Shown here piece after piece: positions 1-9,093 of a stretch of DNA of 9,093 nucleotides; within the stretch, counting starts at the first letter, position 1; the number at the start of each line of letters is the position of its first letter. The notes under the pieces were generated by a model. That model had not been told where the DNA came from. It saw nothing but the letters and a program-made list of their open reading frames with translations, and did no database searches. Origin of the DNA: a virus (taxonomy: Duplodnaviria > Heunggongvirae > Uroviricota > Caudoviricetes); IMG/VR virus record IMGVR_UViG_2537561928_000018; one strand, given 5' to 3'. A program made the position numbers and the translations under genes.

Positions 1-540
1 AAAAATACTTAACAGAACTACCAAGAAGAGAGGGAACGATAAGACCGGAGGTAGTGACCTTGTTAGACAGGCTGTTTCAAAGCTCTTAAGAATCTGTTAA
101 GTAAGGTCATGTGAACAATCTTACCATTTTGTCAATGCTTTTGTCTTTGACCTAAATCAATAAAATGTATCGTTTGATGTGCTTTTAAACAAAGTAGCTA
201 AAAAATCTTTTTAGAGGGGCGCTTCGCTTGGGGTCACTATGTTCTTTCTCTCCCGTTAAGAGGGGAGTTACAGGGCATTTCAAAGCCCTGATAAGGTAAG
301 CCCGATGATAACAGAAACAGAGGGCAAAACCACTTATCAACACTGTGAACGAATAACGTAAAGGGCTGGTTAAGAAAGTCGGTTTAGGGATTGGTAGATG
401 ATTCGGATGAAGCATCCTCATAACAATACCAATTAGAAGGGAGCTTCCCTCTCTGGGGTTATCGCTCTTCTCCCGCTTAGTGGATAGCTAAGAAGGCTTG
501 AAGTCATCTGTGAAGGTGCTGAACAGCTACTATATTGGGT

Positions 541-583
541 GATTGCAACTCGTTGAAAAATAAGCATTTTTAGAAATCACTGT
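541..583 (+). repeat. 43-bp imperfect direct repeat, copy 1 (partner at 638-680)
   Basis: Seen in sequence: gattgcaactcgttgaaaaataagcatttttagaaatcactgt versus aattacaacttattgaaaaataagaacttttagaaattactgt; about 36 of 43 positions identical by eye, same orientation, 97-bp period. Confidence 0.6.
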
Positions 584-637
584 TAAGGTTACAGAGTCAA
601 CTGTGAAGAGACTTGTCAGTTCTCTATATATATGGCT

Positions 638-680
638 AATTACAACTTATTGAAAAATAAGAACTTTTAGAAATTACTGT
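638..680 (+). repeat. 43-bp imperfect direct repeat, copy 2
   Basis: See copy 1; shared core ttgaaaaataag...ttttagaaat.actgt. Confidence 0.6.
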
Positions 681-761
681 CAGAGAGGTGAATACTTGAT
701 AGACACAGCTTTCTGGTTCTGTCAAGCTATTTTTTAATAGATAGCACAAAATGCTAAAGAT

Positions 762-790
762 ACCCCTGTACGAGATGGTATAGGGGTTTT
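762..790. terminator. Hairpin with T-run, possible intrinsic terminator
   Basis: acccctgtac / gtataggggt forms a roughly 10-bp stem (one G-T pair) with 6-nt loop gagatg, followed by tttt on the + strand; sits about 10 bp 3' of the stop of the minus-strand ORF 800-1012, so it could act on either strand. Not folded computationally. Confidence 0.35.
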
Positions 791-799
791 GAAGGGGGT

Positions 800-1012
800 T
801 TAACGGGGGTCCGTGTGGTCATTATCCTTAAGGTCAAGCGTCCATGTACGACCGAACAGTTTAAAGACAACAAGCACTCTGACGAGGACGTAGCGGAGTA
901 ACAGACCTGCAATCAGCCCGATACCTCCACCAGCCCATACATCAGGTGACCCCAGTTCAGGAGGGAGATTTACCATTAAATTTCCTGTGTGCAATGCAAT
1001 ACCATGTGACAT
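800..1012 (-). CDS. Hypothetical small protein with one hydrophobic segment (70 aa; alternative start at internal Met, codon 977-979, gives 58 aa)
   Basis: ORF track; hydrophobic stretch AGGGIGLIAGLLLRYVLVRVLVV; no clear SD before ATG at 1012, weak AGGA before the internal ATG; region looks GC-richer than its surroundings. Could be spurious. Confidence 0.3.
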   Translation of the reverse strand: MSHGIALHTGNLMVNLPPELGSPDVWAGGGIGLIAGLLLRYVLVRVLVVFKLFGRTWTLDLKDNDHTDPR

Positions 1013-1140
1013 ACATAGTTGATTCGGTTAGTTGGGCTTGTACCAACCCCTATCGAATAAACCTCATAGCCACGCCTTTATATTTTACTCTCCCCATAGA
1101 ACCATTATACCACAGATGTTAATAAAATGTTAAAAAATAC

Positions 1141-1179
1141 TTGACATTAGTCTTTGAAAATGCTAGTATTGTATATATA
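1141..1179 (+). promoter_or_regulatory. Sigma70-type promoter P1: TTGACA, 17-bp spacer, extended -10 TGcTAGTAT, then TGTATATATA box
   Basis: Seen in sequence: ttgaca at 1141-1146, tgc-tagtat at 1161-1169, tgtatatata at 1170-1179; located about 50 bp upstream of the 1221 start codon. Confidence 0.55.
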
Positions 1180-1220
1180 AGTTAACAGAATAATAACATC
1201 TTATGAGGGTCGGAACATGA

Positions 1221-1778
1221 ATGAGAGACGCAGAATTTAGAGCGATGCTTCAGGCATCGAGACAACGTAACAAGCACAACTCCTACGCTTACACAAACAA
1301 CCCAACCAGCTACGAACTACCCAAGCTCACCAAGAAAGAACGCAAAGGCATTGACGAAGTAATTCGTAGCATTACGCCACGAGACAGATTTATGCCAACC
1401 AGAAAGAGCACCCAGAACACTATTAAAAATTATCTGGCTAACTTTGATTCTTACGAGCAACTACCAAGTAAGCTTGATGATATTTTCATTGGATTCTGTA
1501 GAAGTGAAGGCCACCCGAAATACAACAAAAAACTATTTTATCTTCTAAAGAATCTTGACGAAATTAACGCAGCCAGCGTGACAAATTATCTTCAAAGACA
1601 AGCAACCAGACTTAGCCATGAATTACCAAGCGATAAATATTGCGCTTTGCTTGCTGTAATGTGTGCAAAGCTAATTGGTATTGTTGAACATCATATTGCC
1701 GTTGGGAATATTGAGCCAATGGAAAACGAGCAACCAGATTTCGAGTTTGACCCGTATTTAGTTACAGAGGAATTTTAA
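1221..1778 (+). CDS. Hypothetical protein, 185 aa, acidic C-terminal tail (first gene of coupled operon)
   Basis: ORF track; ATG start; GAGGG about 11 nt upstream; stop TAA directly abuts the next start codon (TAAATG). No family recognised. Confidence 0.7.
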   Translation: MRDAEFRAMLQASRQRNKHNSYAYTNNPTSYELPKLTKKERKGIDEVIRSITPRDRFMPTRKSTQNTIKNYLANFDSYEQLPSKLDDIFIGFCRSEGHPKYNKKLFYLLKNLDEINAASVTNYLQRQATRLSHELPSDKYCALLAVMCAKLIGIVEHHIAVGNIEPMENEQPDFEFDPYLVTEEF

Positions 1779-2057
1779 ATGAATAAACACACATTAACCC
1801 GTATTTCAGAGGAAGCTTTTAACGAGCTTACCAGAATTAAACGAGCTACTAACTTGCCTCATCAAACTGTAATGCAGCTTGCAATTGCTAAAGAGGTCAC
1901 TGAGTCGGATTTACTTAAATATCCAGTCTCTAAAGGTCGTAAGCACATCCGAATTACTCAGGACGCTTTAGATACTTTGAAGGCACTTAACGGCTTTAAG
2001 ATTGATATTGCCCGTCTATTGAGTCTTAAGATTCACAAGTTAGCGATGGAGGTTTAA
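1779..2057 (+). CDS. Putative DNA-binding protein with two ribbon-helix-helix-like repeats, 92 aa
   Basis: ORF track; SD GAGGAA 6 nt upstream; pattern HTLTRI-SEEAFNELTRIKRAT-NLP-HQTVMQLAIAK and a second HIRIT-QDALDTLKALNG-IDIARLLSLKIHK resemble strand-helix-helix units. Fold assignment is inference only. Confidence 0.6.
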   Translation: MNKHTLTRISEEAFNELTRIKRATNLPHQTVMQLAIAKEVTESDLLKYPVSKGRKHIRITQDALDTLKALNGFKIDIARLLSLKIHKLAMEV

Positions 2058-2272
2058 TGCTATGCGTTACCTTTGAATACCACACGGATAAAATGATTCG
2101 CCACATCTCCGACCTCCTGATTAAGGGAAACGGATTCGGTGACATCCATAACTCAAAAGATATTTTCATTAAAGCCATTGGCCCAAATGAAGTACTGAAA
2201 ACAGCAGTTAAACCGGAATGGTTTGAGCGTCACAAGATTGAATTAGGTTATTGGGGTGAGGAGGTTTTATGA
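2057..2272 (+). CDS. Hypothetical protein, 71 aa
   Basis: ORF track; start overlaps upstream stop (TAATG); GGAGG 4 nt upstream; stop overlaps next start (ATGA). Confidence 0.6.
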   Translation: MLCVTFEYHTDKMIRHISDLLIKGNGFGDIHNSKDIFIKAIGPNEVLKTAVKPEWFERHKIELGYWGEEVL

Positions 2273-2556
2273 AACCTTGGCATGAAGATGTTAGACGATA
2301 TTTTACAGAACACCTTATCTATGATGAATCCAGTGATTCCCTGTGCTGGTCTGATGGAGAGTCAGTCACGATAAATACCGACGACTACGGCAACAAAACA
2401 TTTAATATAGGCCGATATACTTTCTACGTGAAATATGTTGTCTGGTTCCTTTATCATGGCTATCAATCCAACAAGCAAATTATCCATCGAAATGGTAACA
2501 GAGCCGATACCAGACCAAAAAATCTTATGCAAGTCCGAGACTTTAAGAGAAATTAG
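2269..2556 (+). CDS. Minimal HNH-family endonuclease, 95 aa
   Basis: ORF track; SD GGTGAGGAGG 4 nt upstream; C-terminal motif IIHRNGNRADTRPKNLMQV matches the H-x-x-G-N...N-L signature of phage-type HNH endonucleases, preceded by YVKYVVWFLYHG; recalled family pattern, not searched. Confidence 0.7.
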   Translation: MKPWHEDVRRYFTEHLIYDESSDSLCWSDGESVTINTDDYGNKTFNIGRYTFYVKYVVWFLYHGYQSNKQIIHRNGNRADTRPKNLMQVRDFKRN

Positions 2557-2711
2557 AAAAATAGCTTCTCAGGCGCTCTCAATCGCATTCTAACGCAAAA
2601 AACTATCTTATTTTAGGGTGGGTAATACCACTGTACAGGCTACCCCTGAAAAAGACTGTTTAGCTCGTTACAGAGCGATTGAGGAGGTCTGGTAAAAAGG
2701 AGATTTTAAAA

Positions 2712-3035
2712 ATGAACAATTACCCATTACAGATTTTCGTTGATAACGACACCGCTATGATGATTCAGGCTTTCACTGATGTAGGTGTTAGCATTGACTT
2801 TGACAGGCTGTTAAGGCTAATGGCTGATAACTCAGAAGTAATTGAAGACTTTATTCAGTCGGTGGAGTTTAACGAGCCTCGAATGATGCTACCAATTATA
2901 GACAGCAACATGAAAAGATTGGTTATCGAGCAAACGAACAAATACAGTATTAGCCCTGAAAGATATCTCAAGGCAGCTATAGCAATTTTGTACGCTGACA
3001 ATATTTTGGTGACGGATTCGAAGGTGGTGCATTAA
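2712..3035 (+). CDS. Hypothetical acidic protein, 107 aa from the ATG (ORF track begins at TTG 2679)
   Basis: ATG at 2712 has SD AAGGAG 9 nt upstream, preferred over the TTG at 2679 which overlaps a GAGGAGG; D/E-rich; no family recognised. Confidence 0.65.
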   Translation: MNNYPLQIFVDNDTAMMIQAFTDVGVSIDFDRLLRLMADNSEVIEDFIQSVEFNEPRMMLPIIDSNMKRLVIEQTNKYSISPERYLKAAIAILYADNILVTDSKVVH

Positions 3036-3100
3036 TGGAATTGGTGATTATCTGTTTTGTATTGATTGGTATGATTGCAGGTGCATCTATTAAAGTATAA
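3035..3100 (+). CDS. 21-aa hydrophobic micropeptide MELVIICFVLIGMIAGASIKV (not in ORF track)
   Basis: Seen in sequence: ATG overlaps upstream TAA (TAATG); strong SD AAGGTGG 5 nt upstream inside the end of the preceding gene; one predicted transmembrane-length hydrophobic stretch; stop TAA at 3098-3100. Confidence 0.4.
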   Translation: MELVIICFVLIGMIAGASIKV

Positions 3101-3125
3101 ATGTTACCAATCTGTTAAAAAGCTG

Positions 3126-3164
3126 TTGACAAATAACCTTGAGCATGACATAATTGTATATATA
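3126..3164 (+). promoter_or_regulatory. Sigma70-type promoter P2: TTGACA, 17-bp spacer, extended -10 TGaCATAAT, then TGTATATATA box
   Basis: Seen in sequence: ttgaca 3126-3131, tga-cataat 3146-3154, tgtatatata 3155-3164; same architecture as P1. Confidence 0.55.
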
Positions 3165-3243
3165 GGGAGAGCAATTCTCCTTGAATTAAAATATTAATCG
3201 TCTCTACATCGATGATAACTATATTCTGAGTTGGAAAGGTGCA

Positions 3244-3420
3244 ATGCTTTTCGTCATGGCCTTTCAGGTTAGTCTGAGAGGCTATCTCAAAAAGTGCTTA
3301 ATCATTCATTCATTGAACCCTTTACAGCTTTGCCCTAATCATGAGTTAGGGCGTTTCTTTAAGAGTTTTCAAACAGAACTTTTAAAGAAAGTTTTTCCTG
3401 AAACTTCGTTAACGTTATAA
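3244..3420 (+). CDS. Candidate small ORF, 58 aa, basic (alternatively an untranslated leader or small RNA)
   Basis: ATG at 3244 with stop TAA at 3418-3420; lies between P2 and a hairpin at 3432-3473; SD weak (AAAGGTG only 2 nt from the ATG); just below the ORF-track length cutoff. Coding status uncertain. Confidence 0.25.
   Translation: MLFVMAFQVSLRGYLKKCLIIHSLNPLQLCPNHELGRFFKSFQTELLKKVFPETSLTL
3332..3360 (+). terminator. Terminator-like hairpin gccctaa / ttagggc with tail gtttcttt
   Basis: 7-bp perfect stem, 7-nt loop, T-rich tail; located inside the candidate 58-aa ORF or leader, so it may be an attenuator rather than a gene-end terminator. Confidence 0.35.
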
Positions 3421-3431
3421 AGCAAACCTCC

Positions 3432-3480
3432 AAAGCCCTTCACAGATGAGGATGAACCTATGTTTAGGGCTTTTCTTTAT
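3432..3480 (+). terminator. Terminator-like hairpin aaagccct / agggcttt with tail tctttat
   Basis: 8-bp stem but a large 26-nt loop, followed by a T-rich run; begins 12 nt after the stop of the candidate small ORF. Confidence 0.3.
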
Positions 3481-3573
3481 AGAGCATCTTTAATAAATCG
3501 TTAAGTCATCTTCTAAGTGTATTGGCGTTGAAGGTGCTCTATTAAGAAATAATCACACTTAGAGGAAATTATA

Positions 3574-4284
3574 ATGACAAATGATATTTACATTAATGGC
3601 AGAAAGGTTGATAGCTTCGGTGACTGGTCGCCACAGACTGAACATCCAGCTATCACTATTCAGCGTAAAGAACACGATGAAAGAATTAAGCTTGAGCAAT
3701 CGTTAAAGATGTCACCAAAGGTAATTTCCTTTGTGTCTCCTGAGCCTCAAGAAATGCCAGATATCTGCAAAAGTGAAGCACTATTTAATCTTGAGCGTGA
3801 ATATTACCCACAGTTAAAAGCACAGCGTATTAAACTTGATGACGCTTACAGCAAAGTTACCCTGATGCAATCAGCTATTGAGCCGTCAGAATTTGAGATT
3901 CAGGATGAATTGTCACAGAAACCATTTGTCTATTACCAATACGAAGATAATGATGGTTTTGGTACTTTTCCTGAGAATATCCCAGACGTGATTAATAATC
4001 TTCCTGACGGATATCGAATTGTGAAGATGGTTAAAGCTTCAAGGGGTGCTGGTCAATTTATTTATATGACTAATAAGAGCGATGAAGAACTCTGTGAACT
4101 TGCTAGACAGAACATCTTGGCATCACGTAACAAGCAACTTGAAAATGTTAAGTTGTATCTCTCAAGAGAGCTTCAGGCTATGAAAGAACTTGTTAGTGAA
4201 TATGAATCACAGAAGAAGATTGCTATGCAAGCCGATATTGAGCAGTTAATGAAGATTTCTCAGAAATATGCAAAGGCTATTTGA
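3574..4284 (+). CDS. Hypothetical protein, 236 aa
   Basis: ORF track; SD AGAGGAAA 5 nt upstream of ATG; predicted helical, charged C-terminal third; no family recognised. Confidence 0.75.
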   Translation: MTNDIYINGRKVDSFGDWSPQTEHPAITIQRKEHDERIKLEQSLKMSPKVISFVSPEPQEMPDICKSEALFNLEREYYPQLKAQRIKLDDAYSKVTLMQSAIEPSEFEIQDELSQKPFVYYQYEDNDGFGTFPENIPDVINNLPDGYRIVKMVKASRGAGQFIYMTNKSDEELCELARQNILASRNKQLENVKLYLSRELQAMKELVSEYESQKKIAMQADIEQLMKISQKYAKAI

Positions 4285-4292
4285 GGTGATTA

Positions 4293-4601
4293 ATGAATGA
4301 TTTAACAGAACGCGATAAAAGAATTAAAGGGGTGATGGAACCTTTTGAAGATAGGTTCAATGAAATTAAAACGACTCTTGGTGATATTCAGGAGGTCACT
4401 GAATATCTTATTGGTCGTATGGACGAAAAGCCTCTTGCCGAACTAAAGTGTGATGGTCGGGATGATTTAACGCGACTTCTTATCGAACTCAAGGATAAGA
4501 TAAATAAGCTTGATACTGTGTATTATCAAACTGGTCTTTCACTACGTTATGAAATTCAAAAGAATGAACGCGGTGTCGAGTGTATACACTACTTAGATTA
4601 A
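4293..4601 (+). CDS. Hypothetical protein, 102 aa, N-terminus MNDLTER
   Basis: ORF track; SD GAGG 6 nt upstream; N-terminus paralogous to the next gene. Confidence 0.7.
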   Translation: MNDLTERDKRIKGVMEPFEDRFNEIKTTLGDIQEVTEYLIGRMDEKPLAELKCDGRDDLTRLLIELKDKINKLDTVYYQTGLSLRYEIQKNERGVECIHYLD

Positions 4602-4626
4602 AATCGAATTAAAAAGGAGGTGGTGA

Positions 4627-4830
4627 ATGATTGATTTAACAGAACGCTATGAACTCATCAAGGCAATTAGTGAACGACTGAAAGAACAACCCAACAAACC
4701 AAAACGAATCAAATCATCCACCTCTAAGCAAAATAACAGAATCAGAAGAATCGCTAAATGGTGTCTTGATAAATTACCAAGTGATTGTCAGATTGTTGGT
4801 GAAGATGGCAATTATTATCTGGTTGGGTAA
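4627..4830 (+). CDS. Hypothetical basic protein, 67 aa, N-terminus MIDLTER
   Basis: ORF track; strong SD AAGGAGG 6 nt upstream; K/R-rich middle region. Confidence 0.65.
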   Translation: MIDLTERYELIKAISERLKEQPNKPKRIKSSTSKQNNRIRRIAKWCLDKLPSDCQIVGEDGNYYLVG

Positions 4831-4850
4831 AAAGATTGGTTGGGTAAAAA
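4821..4850 (+). repeat. Tandem repeat of ggttgggtaaaaa (2 copies, 17-bp period) overlapping the stop codon of the 67-aa gene
   Basis: Seen in sequence: 4821-4833 and 4838-4850 are identical 13-mers. Confidence 0.55.
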
Positions 4851-4855
4851 TCTAC

Positions 4856-4897
4856 GGGAGAGATTATCGAGTGACATCGGTAGTTTCTCCCTTTTTT
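4856..4897 (+). terminator. Hairpin gggaga / tctccc followed by tttttt, putative intrinsic terminator
   Basis: 6-8 bp stem, roughly 20-nt loop with internal complementarity, then a T6 run; lies between the 67-aa gene and the tape-measure-like gene. Confidence 0.45.
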
Positions 4898-4904
4898 GTA
4901 TGTG

Positions 4905-4970
4905 TGCTACGTGAAATCTGTAAAGCTAATACCCACACTGAAAAATAGAATTTACGTACAACACGCTTAA
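4905..4970 (+). promoter_or_regulatory. Conserved 66-bp intergenic element, copy A (upstream of the tape-measure-like gene)
   Basis: Shares the ordered blocks tgctacgtgaaatct ... atacccac ... aaaaat ... tttacgta ... cacgcttaa with copy B at 7049-7114; first 15 nt identical. Confidence 0.5.
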
Positions 4971-4988
4971 AGAGGTGAAATATGAACA

Positions 4989-7037
4989 ATGAGCAAATTT
5001 ACAGTTGATAGTTTTATCGTTGAATTAGGCTTCAGTGAAAACGTTGTTAAAGGCTTGCAAAGAGTTGAAAAGGCAGCTTTGCAGTCAGCACAAAGAATTG
5101 AAAAGAACCTAAATAAAGGTTTCAGGATTAATACAAAACAGCTTGATAGTAATTTGACAAGTTCTTTAGGGCAACTTGAAAGGAAGTTTAATAAGGCTTT
5201 TGACAAGATTGAACAGAGAGCAAGAAGCACAAAAGCTTTCCGTTTCACAAGTCAGGTTAATGACGCTATTAATCCTCCAAAACAACCAAGACAGCCACGA
5301 ATTAGCGGAAACAGAGCAATCACAGCAGCTTACTCAGCGAATATGAGCAAGTTAAAGGGCTTTGACCCTGTTTTGCAGAAATACATCAAATCTCAGTTTT
5401 ACGGGCTATCTGCTAAAGCTGGTCAGATGGATAATTCAAAATTCAATGAGAAGCTGGCTCAGTTAAATGCTTCAGTCAGAGAAGCAATTGCTAAAGCTAA
5501 AGGTCATACATCCACCAGCATTAACGGTGACAGAGCAGCTAATAGTCTTGATAGTTTGAGTTCAGCAGCAGTTAAAACAGCAGGTGCATTTATCAGCTTT
5601 CAGGCTGTACTATCCGCTTATCAGAAGATTATGGAAGTTGGCCTTCAACGTGCATCATCGGAAAGAAGTATTGATTTCGTATTCGGTGACCAAAGTACAC
5701 AGGTCAAAAAGTTCATTCAAGATTTAACTCAAATTACTGGTATGGACACAACCGAAACACAAGCACAGTTTGCTTCATTTGGTGCATCTGCAAAAAATAC
5801 GATGGGTCTTGAAGGCTCAGAGGAATTATTTAAAAACTTAACTGGATATGCCCGTTTAATGGGTCGTTCAGATGAGCAGATTCAAAGAGCATTAACCGCA
5901 GTATCGCAGATGGCTTCTAAGGGTCAGGTGATGGCTGAAGAGCTTAAGGGGCAACTATCTGAAGCTTTACCGGGTGCTACTCAGGCATTTGCAAAGGCTT
6001 TAGGTCTGACTGAAAAACAGCTTTTCGATAAGATGAAAAATGGTGATGTTAAAGCCTCTGATGCACTCCCTAAGTTTGCTAAAGAACTTGGTTCACAGAT
6101 TAATTCCAGAGGTGGCTGGAAAGCTATTCAGGACTCTACGCAGACGATGTTAGGGAACTTAAAGAATACTTGGAACAACTCACTAACGGATATCTTCAGA
6201 GGTTCTGAAAATGGTCTTCAAGATTTCACAAGAAGCTTAACAACGCTTTTAAATAGTCTTGGTGGGAGTGGTAAAACATTAGGTGAAAGTCTTGGTAATC
6301 TCATGACTTCTATGTCACACGGTGTCGATAACCTGACTGATATTAGTTACAGGGTAAGGGCGTTCTTTGACGAGGTGACATTGGCTTATCGTGGTTTAAC
6401 CGATGAACAAAAGAAAGTTGTTGATGCTTTAGGTTCTGGCTTGATTAATAGTTTAAAAGTCTTGGCTGGTGTTATTGCTGTAAATAAAGTTGTTGGTGTA
6501 ACCAGAAGTATTTACGGGCTTATGACTGCTATCACAAGATTAGGTCAGGTCGCTGATACTACAGCGGATAACGTGAATAGAAAGAACGGGAAACCATCAA
6601 GGTTTAATCTTGGGAATATGCTATTAGCTGGTAGTGCTATCTATGCAGGTTATGAAAGATTAGCCTCTACACCTGAACGAATGGAAGCACAAGCTAAATT
6701 ACCAGAGCTGGCTAAAGAGTCTGGACTTAAGCCAGTATTTACTATGGACGATGTGAAAGGTTGGTTTAATAGTGCAGCTATGAATCTTGCTAACTTCCAG
6801 CATCCAGAATTAATCACCATGAGACAAGATGCGGCATTAACGAATACGGATATCCAAAGCCTGAGAGATGAAATTAGTGCTTTGAGCAAACGTATTCAGG
6901 AGCCTGTGAAAGTTTCACTTGGTGGTGAAGTTGCCATTAAACCAGATGAAACCAGCTTTATGACCTTTAGCAGTAATATCTACGACCAATACGCAGAAGC
7001 TACGCTATTAAGTTCATCATTCCCAGAAGATGATTGA
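4989..7037 (+). CDS. Tape-measure-like protein, 682 aa
   Basis: ORF track; residues about 300-368 (ALTAVSQMASKGQVMAEELKGQLSEALPGATQAFAKALGLTEKQLFDKMKNGDVKASDALPKFAKELG) match my recollection of the conserved core of phage tail tape-measure proteins (SKG.V.AEEL..QL.E.LPGA...A.A.G pattern); A/Q/K/L/S-rich helical composition. The only SD (AGAGGTG) is about 11 nt upstream of the ATG. Confidence 0.6.
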   Translation: MSKFTVDSFIVELGFSENVVKGLQRVEKAALQSAQRIEKNLNKGFRINTKQLDSNLTSSLGQLERKFNKAFDKIEQRARSTKAFRFTSQVNDAINPPKQPRQPRISGNRAITAAYSANMSKLKGFDPVLQKYIKSQFYGLSAKAGQMDNSKFNEKLAQLNASVREAIAKAKGHTSTSINGDRAANSLDSLSSAAVKTAGAFISFQAVLSAYQKIMEVGLQRASSERSIDFVFGDQSTQVKKFIQDLTQITGMDTTETQAQFASFGASAKNTMGLEGSEELFKNLTGYARLMGRSDEQIQRALTAVSQMASKGQVMAEELKGQLSEALPGATQAFAKALGLTEKQLFDKMKNGDVKASDALPKFAKELGSQINSRGGWKAIQDSTQTMLGNLKNTWNNSLTDIFRGSENGLQDFTRSLTTLLNSLGGSGKTLGESLGNLMTSMSHGVDNLTDISYRVRAFFDEVTLAYRGLTDEQKKVVDALGSGLINSLKVLAGVIAVNKVVGVTRSIYGLMTAITRLGQVADTTADNVNRKNGKPSRFNLGNMLLAGSAIYAGYERLASTPERMEAQAKLPELAKESGLKPVFTMDDVKGWFNSAAMNLANFQHPELITMRQDAALTNTDIQSLRDEISALSKRIQEPVKVSLGGEVAIKPDETSFMTFSSNIYDQYAEATLLSSSFPEDD

Positions 7038-7048
7038 TAATAGTCGAA

Positions 7049-7114
7049 TGCTACGTGAAATCTTCTGAACAGATATACCCACCAAAAATTATTTTTTACG
7101 TAGCTCACGCTTAA
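7049..7114 (+). promoter_or_regulatory. Conserved 66-bp intergenic element, copy B (upstream of the 258-aa gene)
   Basis: See copy A; begins 12 nt after the stop of the tape-measure-like gene and ends about 80 nt before the ATG at 7195. Confidence 0.5.
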
Positions 7115-7194
7115 CAGAGAAAACACTTATATATCAAAGGCTTGGTTAAAAATGATTAAAATACACTAAGTCTTTGAAATCAAAGGAGAATTTA

Positions 7195-7968
7195 ATGATT
7201 TACTCTAACCAAATCAAATATAGTGGCAAAGATGGCATCTATTTCCACTTAAGAGATAATGTAGATGCCTTCTTAACCTTATCAGCAACTGAAAACATGG
7301 AATTTGACAGCCCTATGCAGGTAACTACACAGAACATGCAATCAGGGCAAACCGTCACAGATAATGTGCAAAGAGCACCCAGAACAATCACTATTAGTGG
7401 TGTCGTTGTAGTTGGCTATGAAGGAAGTTTATTATTAACTCGTCAGGGTCAATTAGTAGAAAACTTCATTGACACTCTCGAAAGCTGGCGTGACCAGAAG
7501 CAAATTATTTCGGTCATCTGTAAAGACGGTATCAAGATTGATGACTCCATTATCACGAGTTTTAAAGCCTCTAAAGATGTTGGAATTTCAAACGGCTTAA
7601 GAATCCAATTAACTTTTCAGGAAATTAACTTTAAAGCTATTGTGGGTCAGACTGATATCTCGGCTGCGACCGGAAGGACTTCTACCACAAGTGATGGTGG
7701 TGCTACCAGTAAAAAGAATACTGGTAATACTACAACAAGTCTAGGTAATGGTATGTTGCTGTGTCAGGAGCTATATAATCGCTCTACGAGTGAACTTTCT
7801 AATGAGCAACTTCAAGCCCGTATCAATTGTGGTAGAAGTGTCAAAGTTGAGAATGGAAAAAGCACCTTCTCAGATGCCGCTAATGAGCAAGCTTCAAAGG
7901 CGCTTAATAATGCTGGTACAGGTAATGTTTTGAAGAGGCTTTCTGTGAATCCTAACAAGCGCTACTGA
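7195..7968 (+). CDS. Hypothetical protein, 258 aa from the ATG (ORF track begins at TTG 7174); possibly tail-associated by position only
   Basis: ATG at 7195 has SD AAGGAG 6 nt upstream, and the TTG at 7174 would overlap it; contains an S/T/G-rich linker ([28 protein letters not shown]) between two regions; no family recognised. Confidence 0.7.
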
Positions 7969-7982
7969 CGATAGAATCTCAA

Positions 7983-8678
7983 CTATATGATAACCTCATC
8001 AACATCTATTAAACCCCTCTCAGTGACTTCAGAAAGCGACTGTATAGCCTCTGTAACGTCCTCTGAGGGGTTTTCTGTTATTGGTAAGGTGATTGCTCTA
8101 CCGTTGTGAAAAGTTACTTTACAGCGACGTTTAGCAGTATTTAAAACGACCTCTTTAACAGCACTTTTGATTATCAGTTGTGCTTCAATCCTTCCCGCCT
8201 TTGTAGTCAAGTCACAATCAGACAAAGAGCCTGTATCGATAGACTTAAGCCGCTGTGTCTCCTTCTCGATATCCGCATCAACCTGTGATAGCTCACCTTT
8301 TAACTGTTTTAGTTTGCTGGTAATAGCGGACAAGTCTTCAATTTCAAGTGATAGCTGTACCAGCTTTTCAATATTGTTTGAGATGTGTTCACGGTGTAGC
8401 TTCAGTGTGTCTATGGTATTCGTCGTATCGCTATCAAATCGGTCAAGACGAGATAGCAGGGTAAGTAATGTACCATCGGTTTGCTTACGTGAAAGTCCTT
8501 TAGCACTACAACGGTTTTCATTACGAAGGGGACAACGATAAATCCCGTTTCTTGTATTGCTAAAGCCTGTGATAATCAGAGCATGACCACATTCAGAACA
8601 ACGGATAACACCTTTAAAGAGATTCACACTCAATGGTTTATCTGAAGCAGGTTTTCGACCGTAACGAGAATGTGATAG
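7983..8678 (-). pseudogene. Large serine recombinase, 3' fragment (zinc-ribbon plus coiled-coil region); 5' catalytic part displaced by the IS3 insertion
   Basis: Minus-strand frame is open from the IS3 boundary with no credible start (track start at 8633 is a TTG); Cys pattern RCSECGH...YRCPLRNENRC followed by a long heptad-like coiled coil is typical of the C-terminal region of large serine integrases; about 230 aa is too short for a complete enzyme. Confidence 0.7.
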
Positions 8679-8743
8679 TGATCTTACCCAGCAATAGTGG
8701 ACACGCGGCTAAGTGAGTAAACTCTCAGTCAGAGGTGACTCAC

Positions 8744-9043
8744 ATGACAAAAACAGTATCAACCAGTAAAAAACCCCGTAAACAGCATTCGCCTGAATTT
8801 CGCAGTGAAGCCCTGAAGCTTGCTGAACGCATCGGTGTTACTGCCGCAGCCCGTGAACTCAGCCTGTATGAATCACAACTCTACAACTGGCGCAGTAAAC
8901 AGCAAAATCAGCAGACGTCTTCTGAACGTGAACTGGAGATGTCTACCGAGATTGCACGTCTCAAACGCCAGCTGGCAGAACGGGATGAAGAGCTGGCTAT
9001 CCTCCAAAAGGCCGCGACATACTTCGCGAAGCGCCTGAAATGA
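8744..9043 (+). CDS. insE: IS3 OrfA (transposase N-terminal / regulatory protein), 99 aa from the ATG
   Basis: Translation MTKTVSTSKKPRKQHSPEFRSEALKLAERIGVTAAARELSLYESQLYNWRSKQQ... is the IS3 OrfA sequence as I recall it; the track start at 8735 is an upstream GTG. Confidence 0.85.
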   Translation: MTKTVSTSKKPRKQHSPEFRSEALKLAERIGVTAAARELSLYESQLYNWRSKQQNQQTSSERELEMSTEIARLKRQLAERDEELAILQKAATYFAKRLK

Positions 9044-9093
9044 AGTATGTCTTTATTGAAAAACATCAGGCTGAGTTCAGCATCAAAGCAATG
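9040..9093 (+). CDS. insF: IS3 OrfB (transposase catalytic part), 5' end only
   Basis: ATG overlaps the insE stop (ATGA); translation MKYVFIEKHQAEFSIKAM matches the IS3 OrfB N-terminus as I recall it; truncated by the window edge. Confidence 0.8.
   Translation, partial: MKYVFIEKHQAEFSIKAM

Follow-up and report, generated by a model that had tools for sequence, protein, structure and literature searches.

An IS3 insertion splits the large serine recombinase gene of a yecE island and would leave the island without mobility of its own

The window, that is the entire stretch of 9,093 nucleotides analysed here (IMG/VR virus record IMGVR_UViG_2537561928_000018), covers the interior of a chromosomal island, the 3' fragment of a large serine recombinase gene on the minus strand and, directly abutting this fragment, the left part of the insertion sequence IS3. 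The following features were recognised, with positions beyond 9093 given in extended coordinates on the source contig described below:

1-7982, plus strand: interior of the approximately 11.5-kb yecE island served by the recombinase (AR434 annotation, Pfam, PHROG and comparison with K-12)
2269-2556, plus strand: HNH endonuclease (AR434 annotation, Pfam/PHROG)
4989-7037, plus strand: tape-measure protein (AR434 annotation, Pfam/PHROG)
7195-7968, plus strand: Dit-like baseplate protein (AR434 annotation, Pfam/PHROG)
7983-8678, minus strand: 3' fragment of the large serine recombinase (putative integrase), codons 277-507 and the stop
8675-8678: ATAG, left copy of a 4-bp target-site duplication; the right copy lies outside the window at 9937-9940 (extended)
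8679-9093, plus strand: left 415 bp of IS3, matching the annotated copy in ET846 at 415/415 positions
8679-9936 (extended): full IS3 of 1258 bp on the source contig, 1258/1258 identical to the ET846 IS3
8679-8717, plus strand: left terminal inverted repeat of IS3, about 39 bp, imperfect, starting with TG (from comparison of the two IS3 ends)
8709-8711, minus strand: in-frame TAG (plus-strand CTA) within IS3, closing the broken recombinase frame (sequence and frame arithmetic)
8744-9043, plus strand: IS3 orfA, 99 aa, helix-turn-helix part of the transposase (Pfam HTH_Tnp_1, E 5.7e-10)
9040-9093, plus strand: start of IS3 orfB, the DDE/rve part of the transposase, overlapping the orfA stop in ATGA

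The first-pass annotation, made from the letters of the window, had described a minus-strand recombinase frame that lacks a start codon, enters IS3 at 8679 and stops at 8709-8711, and both the list of open reading frames and the sequence itself bear this out. The fragment, bounded by its stop codon (7983-7985) and position 8678, comprises 231 codons and contains no ATG; its earliest alternative starts, TTG at 8633 and GTG at 8627, both fall within the coding sequence of the intact protein. Past 8678 the frame runs on for ten codons of IS3 sequence before reaching the TAG at 8709-8711, which is in register with the recombinase (8709-7983 = 726 = 3 x 242). Congruent with the earlier view that only the zinc-ribbon and C-terminal part remains on this side, the window keeps residues 277-507 of a 507-aa recombinase, an assignment on which Pfam, the domains of the intact allele and the alignment to the A118 integrase agree. 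The fragment holds a Zn_ribbon_recom domain (PF13408, E 6e-8, fragment residues 20-73) with a four-cysteine zinc ribbon, CSECGH...CPLRNENRC, and a match to the coiled-coil Seryl_tRNA_N domain that is weak and falls below the Pfam cut-off; the C-terminal region may form a coiled-coil. Judged by these sequence features, the recombinase fragment and the adjoining IS3 end are not attributable to chance.

An intact counterpart is present in the chromosome of E. coli AR434, to which window positions 1-8679 are 99.99% identical with a single mismatch (position 704). There the recombinase gene is uninterrupted, with an ORF of 1524 nt and a product of 507 aa, and the fragment in the window is 100% identical in DNA to its 3' part. 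The domains of the intact protein are, in Pfam:

Residues 4-164: Resolvase catalytic domain (PF00239, E 5.6e-20)
Residues 190-277: Recombinase domain (PF07508, E 3e-14)
Residues 296-349: Zn_ribbon_recom

Ser11, within the motif YIRFSS, is likely the nucleophile, as judged by eye against known integrases, and residues 240-455 align to the solved structure of the C-terminal domain of the Listeria phage A118 integrase (4kis/6dnw; E 4e-5), an alignment that covers the putative coiled-coil region with low accuracy. Given this domain set and the A118 match, the 507-aa protein can be regarded as a typical large serine recombinase, sharing with the A118/LI integrase, phiC31 and Bxb1 the order Resolvase, Recombinase, Zn_ribbon_recom and long C-terminal region. 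The zinc ribbon, the AR434 allele and the A118 match likewise settle that the part left in the window derives from a serine recombinase, as had been assumed. Among phage-borne proteins, its closest relatives are YbcK-like recombinases from lambdoid phages of E. coli, with only 36% identity.

The IS3 portion of the window opens with TGATCTTACCC, and the sequence from 8679 onward, TGATCTTACCCAGCAATAGTGG..., is the left end of IS3; the two ends of the complete element compare as TGATCTTACCCAGC... versus TGATCCTACCCACG.... On the source contig orfA is also called as a 99-aa gene, and orfB in full encodes 288 aa with rve domains (9040-9906, extended), while the RefSeq annotation of the identical copy in ET846 carries the remark 'programmed frameshift'. 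The element thus shows no difference of substance from IS3 of Escherichia coli (IS3 family, IS3 group), with exact identity, a length of 1258 bp, imperfect inverted repeats of about 39 bp with TG at the start and CA at the end, overlapping orfA and orfB and a short target duplication.

To reach sequence beyond the window we looked up the 214-aa product that would start at the GTG of the truncated recombinase, and recovered the NCBI draft contig AQEW01000010.1 (GCA_000354735.2), the reverse complement of which matches the window at 9093/9093 positions (about 310420-319512 of the contig). With the 216-aa product that starts at the TTG, the equivalent look-up gave nothing but a contig in which another IS sits 6 bp away. 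The order on AQEW01000010.1 is zinc-ribbon fragment, IS3 orfA, orfB, a 282-aa fragment with Resolvase and Recombinase domains, the 5' part of yecE, and yecD. The remainder of the recombinase had been expected about 1.26 kb further on; indeed, the complete 1258-bp IS3 is followed, beyond the right ATAG, by recombinase codons 1-277, up to an ATG at extended coordinate 10768. As it stands, this upstream ORF of 282 aa consists of 277 recombinase residues and five contributed by IS3, and it carries the resolvase-type catalytic domain that was predicted to lie past the element and that is absent from the window. The sequence past IS3 hence continues the recombinase with its catalytic and recombinase-domain half, the duplication standing in between.

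The junctions read ...gtgATAG/TGATC...GGATCA/ATAGttgctgg, so that ATAG, single in the intact allele, stands on both sides of IS3 in the disrupted one. On this point the first-pass annotation was off by one base: it had predicted a target duplication of 3 bp, and the one read at both junctions of the contig is 4 bp. Three base pairs is the more usual duplication of IS3; the copy in this recombinase gene has four. Removal in silico of IS3 and one ATAG yields a single ORF of 1524 nt, identical in DNA to the AR434 allele, and its 507 aa fall within the 450-550 aa foreseen for the repaired frame; the whole island then differs from that of AR434 by one base. Misassembly as the source of the junction is unlikely because a second assembly, GCA_000354355.2, has the identical recombinase/IS3 junction. 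Exact scans for the 40-nt junction gave no match in GTDB species representatives, JGI metagenome contigs or IMG/VR, and it was also absent from the complete RefSeq E. coli genomes, where the sole high-coverage match, ET846, has its IS3 placed elsewhere.

In AR434 the island appears as an insertion of about 11.5 kb that splits yecE, a DUF72 gene, and its ends were set by alignment with the empty, intact yecE of K-12. The recombinase gene lies 71 bp inside the right end (attR). A 7-bp core, AAAATCA, is common to attL, attR and attB, and the rebuilt attP has perfect 10-bp inverted repeats, AGTGTATTTA and TAAATACACT, around this core, a layout of the kind expected for a serine integrase. Because the gene sits 71 bp from the end, the core is shared, attP carries the inverted repeat and yecE of K-12 is empty, the recombinase is, as far as sequence can tell, the integrase of the yecE island; the position beside attR and the structure of the att sites thereby substantiate what the first reading had raised conditionally. 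As in phage-type serine integrases, the gene adjoins an att site, the common core is short and attP is palindromic; unlike them, this recombinase serves an 11.5-kb island devoid of capsid and packaging genes, and in the window it is split.

Relatives of the recombinase gene beside yecE are found in about 297 of 5426 complete E. coli genomes. Variants of the island differ by 6-14% in DNA with unchanged gene order and at the same site. Such divergence is larger than one would expect from vertical descent within E. coli, and it suggests that the island may have been acquired repeatedly. Two known elements of O157 Sakai were considered as possible equivalents and rejected: Sp13 is a P2-like prophage near yecA, and SpLE2 lies between cobU and yeeB (PMC8190617). 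Literature searches for a serine recombinase at yecE returned nothing relevant.

With Pfam and PHROG, no directionality factor, capsid or packaging genes were recognised in the island, and the annotation of the AR434 variant lists no other recombinase. Hallmarks of P4-like, PICI, cfPICI and PLE satellites and catalogued defence systems were likewise not found, Pfam and PHROG seeing only the HNH, tape-measure and Dit-like genes; PADLOC gave no match except to its homing-endonuclease model, and for the eight hypothetical proteins of the island nothing usable came from Pfam, PHROG or PADLOC scans. The island has two HNH endonuclease genes, one at window 2269-2556 and one outside the window (3138-3662 of locus L001), and it is an HNH protein with an AP2 DNA-binding domain that matches the PADLOC model. 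Window positions 1-1220 and 3036-3573 are long stretches free of convincing ORFs and of genes annotated in sister genomes. Cargo in the left part of the island varies (L002 2502-4409, L008 2333-3253): in place of the AP2/HNH gene of AR434, ET846 has a DNA adenine methyltransferase and a small recombinase of the resolvase/invertase type, and the O157:H7 strain Vac_07.1 has an additional 306-aa hypothetical protein.

The tape-measure and Dit-like pair (window 4989-7968) mirrors a gene pair of virulent Felixounavirus phages. The Dit-like gene is 95.4% identical in DNA to its Felixounavirus counterpart over 544 bp (window 7210-7753). The order of the pair is also the same in phage phiWec172, where the Dit counterpart comes immediately after the tape-measure gene. 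At the protein level the N-terminal part of the Dit-like protein is about 98-100% identical to that of the phage, reaching 100% over approximately residues 40-160, while their C-terminal thirds differ. Overall identity between the tape-measure proteins is only 29%, but they have in common the first 40 or so residues (78%) and a C-terminal LLSSS-PE motif. The AP2/HNH endonuclease of the island is about 41-43% identical to Felixounavirus HNH endonucleases, and the remaining island genes gave no match in the comparison with the phiWec172 genome, PADLOC, Pfam or PHROGs. In addition, a non-coding stretch of 38 bp (window 28-65) is 89% identical to an unannotated region of phiWec172, about 83094-83131 of LC739530.1 (E 2.6e-7 in a two-sequence comparison), which could be a shared regulatory site or chance.

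The island may accordingly be a tail-module remnant, an interference island or a Felix O1-like satellite. We consider it unlikely that the island belongs to a novel class of elements directed against virulent Felixounavirus phages, by interference or as a satellite; in such a scheme, its tail proteins would enter phage tail assembly and corrupt or redirect it, either for defence or to parasitise the phage like a satellite. No relevant paper on a satellite or defence island of Felixounavirus came out of the literature searches.

Disruption of the recombinase gene is not confined to the window, since at least nine independent IS insertions were found in different strains (ISEc12 twice, IS2 twice, IS3 twice and a multi-copy IS three times). 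With gene positions numbered within L001 11990-13600, they are:

453-461: ISEc12, in a large clade of complete genomes, e.g. SCEC020026
657: multi-copy IS-like element (L015)
702: the same multi-copy IS-like element as in L015, in both orientations (L004, L016)
708: IS3 (the window, L011, which is AQEW01000010.1, and L012)
719-724: IS2 (EC45, L018)
785: ISEc12 (L013)
804: IS2 (L014, L017, L019)
856: IS3, in the diverged ET846 copy

The affected stretch, L001 12442-12845, corresponds to about window 8424-8678 and the part of the gene beyond it, and is seen in loci L002, L003, L004, L006 and L013-L019. Four of the insertions lie within 22 bp of the IS3 site, a stretch towards which the look-ups are biased. 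A hot spot at nucleotides 702-724 was considered and is not claimed here: the 214-aa and 216-aa look-ups detect only insertions in that stretch of the gene, and the clustering of sites is for this reason not interpretable. Sampling one in five of the complete genomes gave 22 islands of at least 99% identity, of which 15 had the ISEc12-disrupted gene and seven an intact one. Other island copies carry IS elements in the tape-measure gene or between genes, and RefSeq/NCBI annotation marks sister copies of the recombinase gene as incomplete pseudogenes.

At the contig ends of L004 (positions 1-29), L015 and L016, the recombinase fragment borders on TGTCAACGACGGATGAAAAGTGATCCACT, which resembles the end of an IS, and on TGTCACGAACGGTGCAATAGTGATCCACA, probably the matching other end; the former occurs in 2973 of 5426 E. 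coli genomes, with up to 25 copies per genome. In ET846 (L002 11584-13816) an identical IS3 lies about 150 bp further into a diverged recombinase gene, has no duplication and leads straight into an unrelated prophage's lysis and head genes, which points to a rearrangement mediated by IS3 and not to a simple insertion.

Our reading of the window is that an entire IS3 of canonical form inserted itself at codon 276-277 of the 507-aa integrase. The insertion was simple, with the 4-bp ATAG duplicated and neither deletion nor rearrangement, and IS3 now parts the catalytic and recombinase domains, beyond the window, from the zinc-ribbon/C-terminal region at 7983-8678; the cut falls at the very end of the Recombinase domain (residues 190-277). 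Large serine recombinases need the catalytic, recombinase and zinc-ribbon/coiled-coil domains in one polypeptide to bind att sites, synapse and cut. Since all of these are required in one chain, neither fragment should be able to recombine, and with neither fragment functional and no other recombinase in this variant of the island, loss of self-excision is to be expected: the island would be left without its own excision and re-integration. We are highly confident in this reading as a whole, in which the split of the integrase by a simple IS3 insertion is read directly from the contig and the loss of mobility is what we infer from it; the earlier statement that the insertion had fixed the element in place was in this sense sound. 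The event is recent, as the DNA on either side does not differ from the intact allele. Some mobility could nevertheless persist or return: a related recombinase encoded at another place in the genome might supply the function in trans, and rare precise excision of IS3 could restore the integrase gene.

Other accounts of the same junction were weighed against this one. IS3 might mark the end point of a rearrangement or deletion, with the 5' half of the recombinase gone or located elsewhere, and ET846, where IS3 sits at another position of a diverged gene copy and leads into unrelated prophage lysis and head genes, provides a precedent. On the contig identical to the window, however, the two halves of the gene stand on either side of IS3 and its 4-bp duplication, and removing IS3 restores the exact intact allele, which makes a rearrangement extremely improbable here unless the window stems from another genome that has these 9093 bases in common. 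More difficult to set aside is that the island may have been immobile already before IS3 arrived, so that the insertion changed little; this follows from the lack of recognisable directionality factor, capsid and packaging genes. IS3 would then be part of the neutral decay of a dispensable gene in a remnant, fixing nothing that was mobile, as is also in line with the IS elements in the tape-measure gene or intergenic DNA of other strains' islands and with the nine or more independent insertions in the recombinase gene itself. Yet intact 507-aa alleles persist in many genomes, and the variants with 6-14% divergence but the same architecture and site, together with the empty site of K-12, point to repeated acquisition by a working integrase. 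We regard such prior decay as a real possibility, albeit one with the odds somewhat against it.

Inactivation of the integrase might also have been selected, as a domestication of an island that benefits its host, for instance by interfering with Felixounavirus phages. The disruptions recur independently, about two thirds of the sampled near-identical islands have an IS in the recombinase gene, and the tail genes are mostly intact and match Felixounavirus genes. On the other hand, a single ISEc12 event that spread clonally accounts for most of the disrupted copies, several strains have an IS in the tape-measure gene as well, and the look-ups that found the other events are biased to one part of the gene. 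Selection of this kind is thus quite improbable, and a simple IS3 insertion that deprived the island of its own integrase remains our preferred explanation.

Integrase genes that are truncated or disrupted by an IS have precedents in cryptic prophages and islands: intQ and intR have been discussed as likely integrase pseudogenes (PMC3603311). Like cryptic prophages and islands of the intQ/intR type, the yecE island would have lost its recombinase to a secondary insertion and become fixed in the chromosome; it differs from them in having a serine rather than a tyrosine integrase, and in that the allele before the insertion is known exactly. That an IS interrupts the integrase of a prophage-like island is commonplace when mobile elements decay or become fixed; as a known kind of event between known families, the IS3 finding matters little. 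Its practical value is that it accounts for the truncated 'zinc-ribbon recombinase' ORF and provides the exact pre-insertion allele, and the recombinase/IS3 junction is a lineage-specific marker usable for strain typing. Of more interest than the IS3 event is that a serine integrase and copies of Felixounavirus tail genes occur together on one island, which could repay experiment; if the island is indeed aimed at these phages, the recurrent knock-outs of its integrase by IS elements could reflect the domestication of a useful island.
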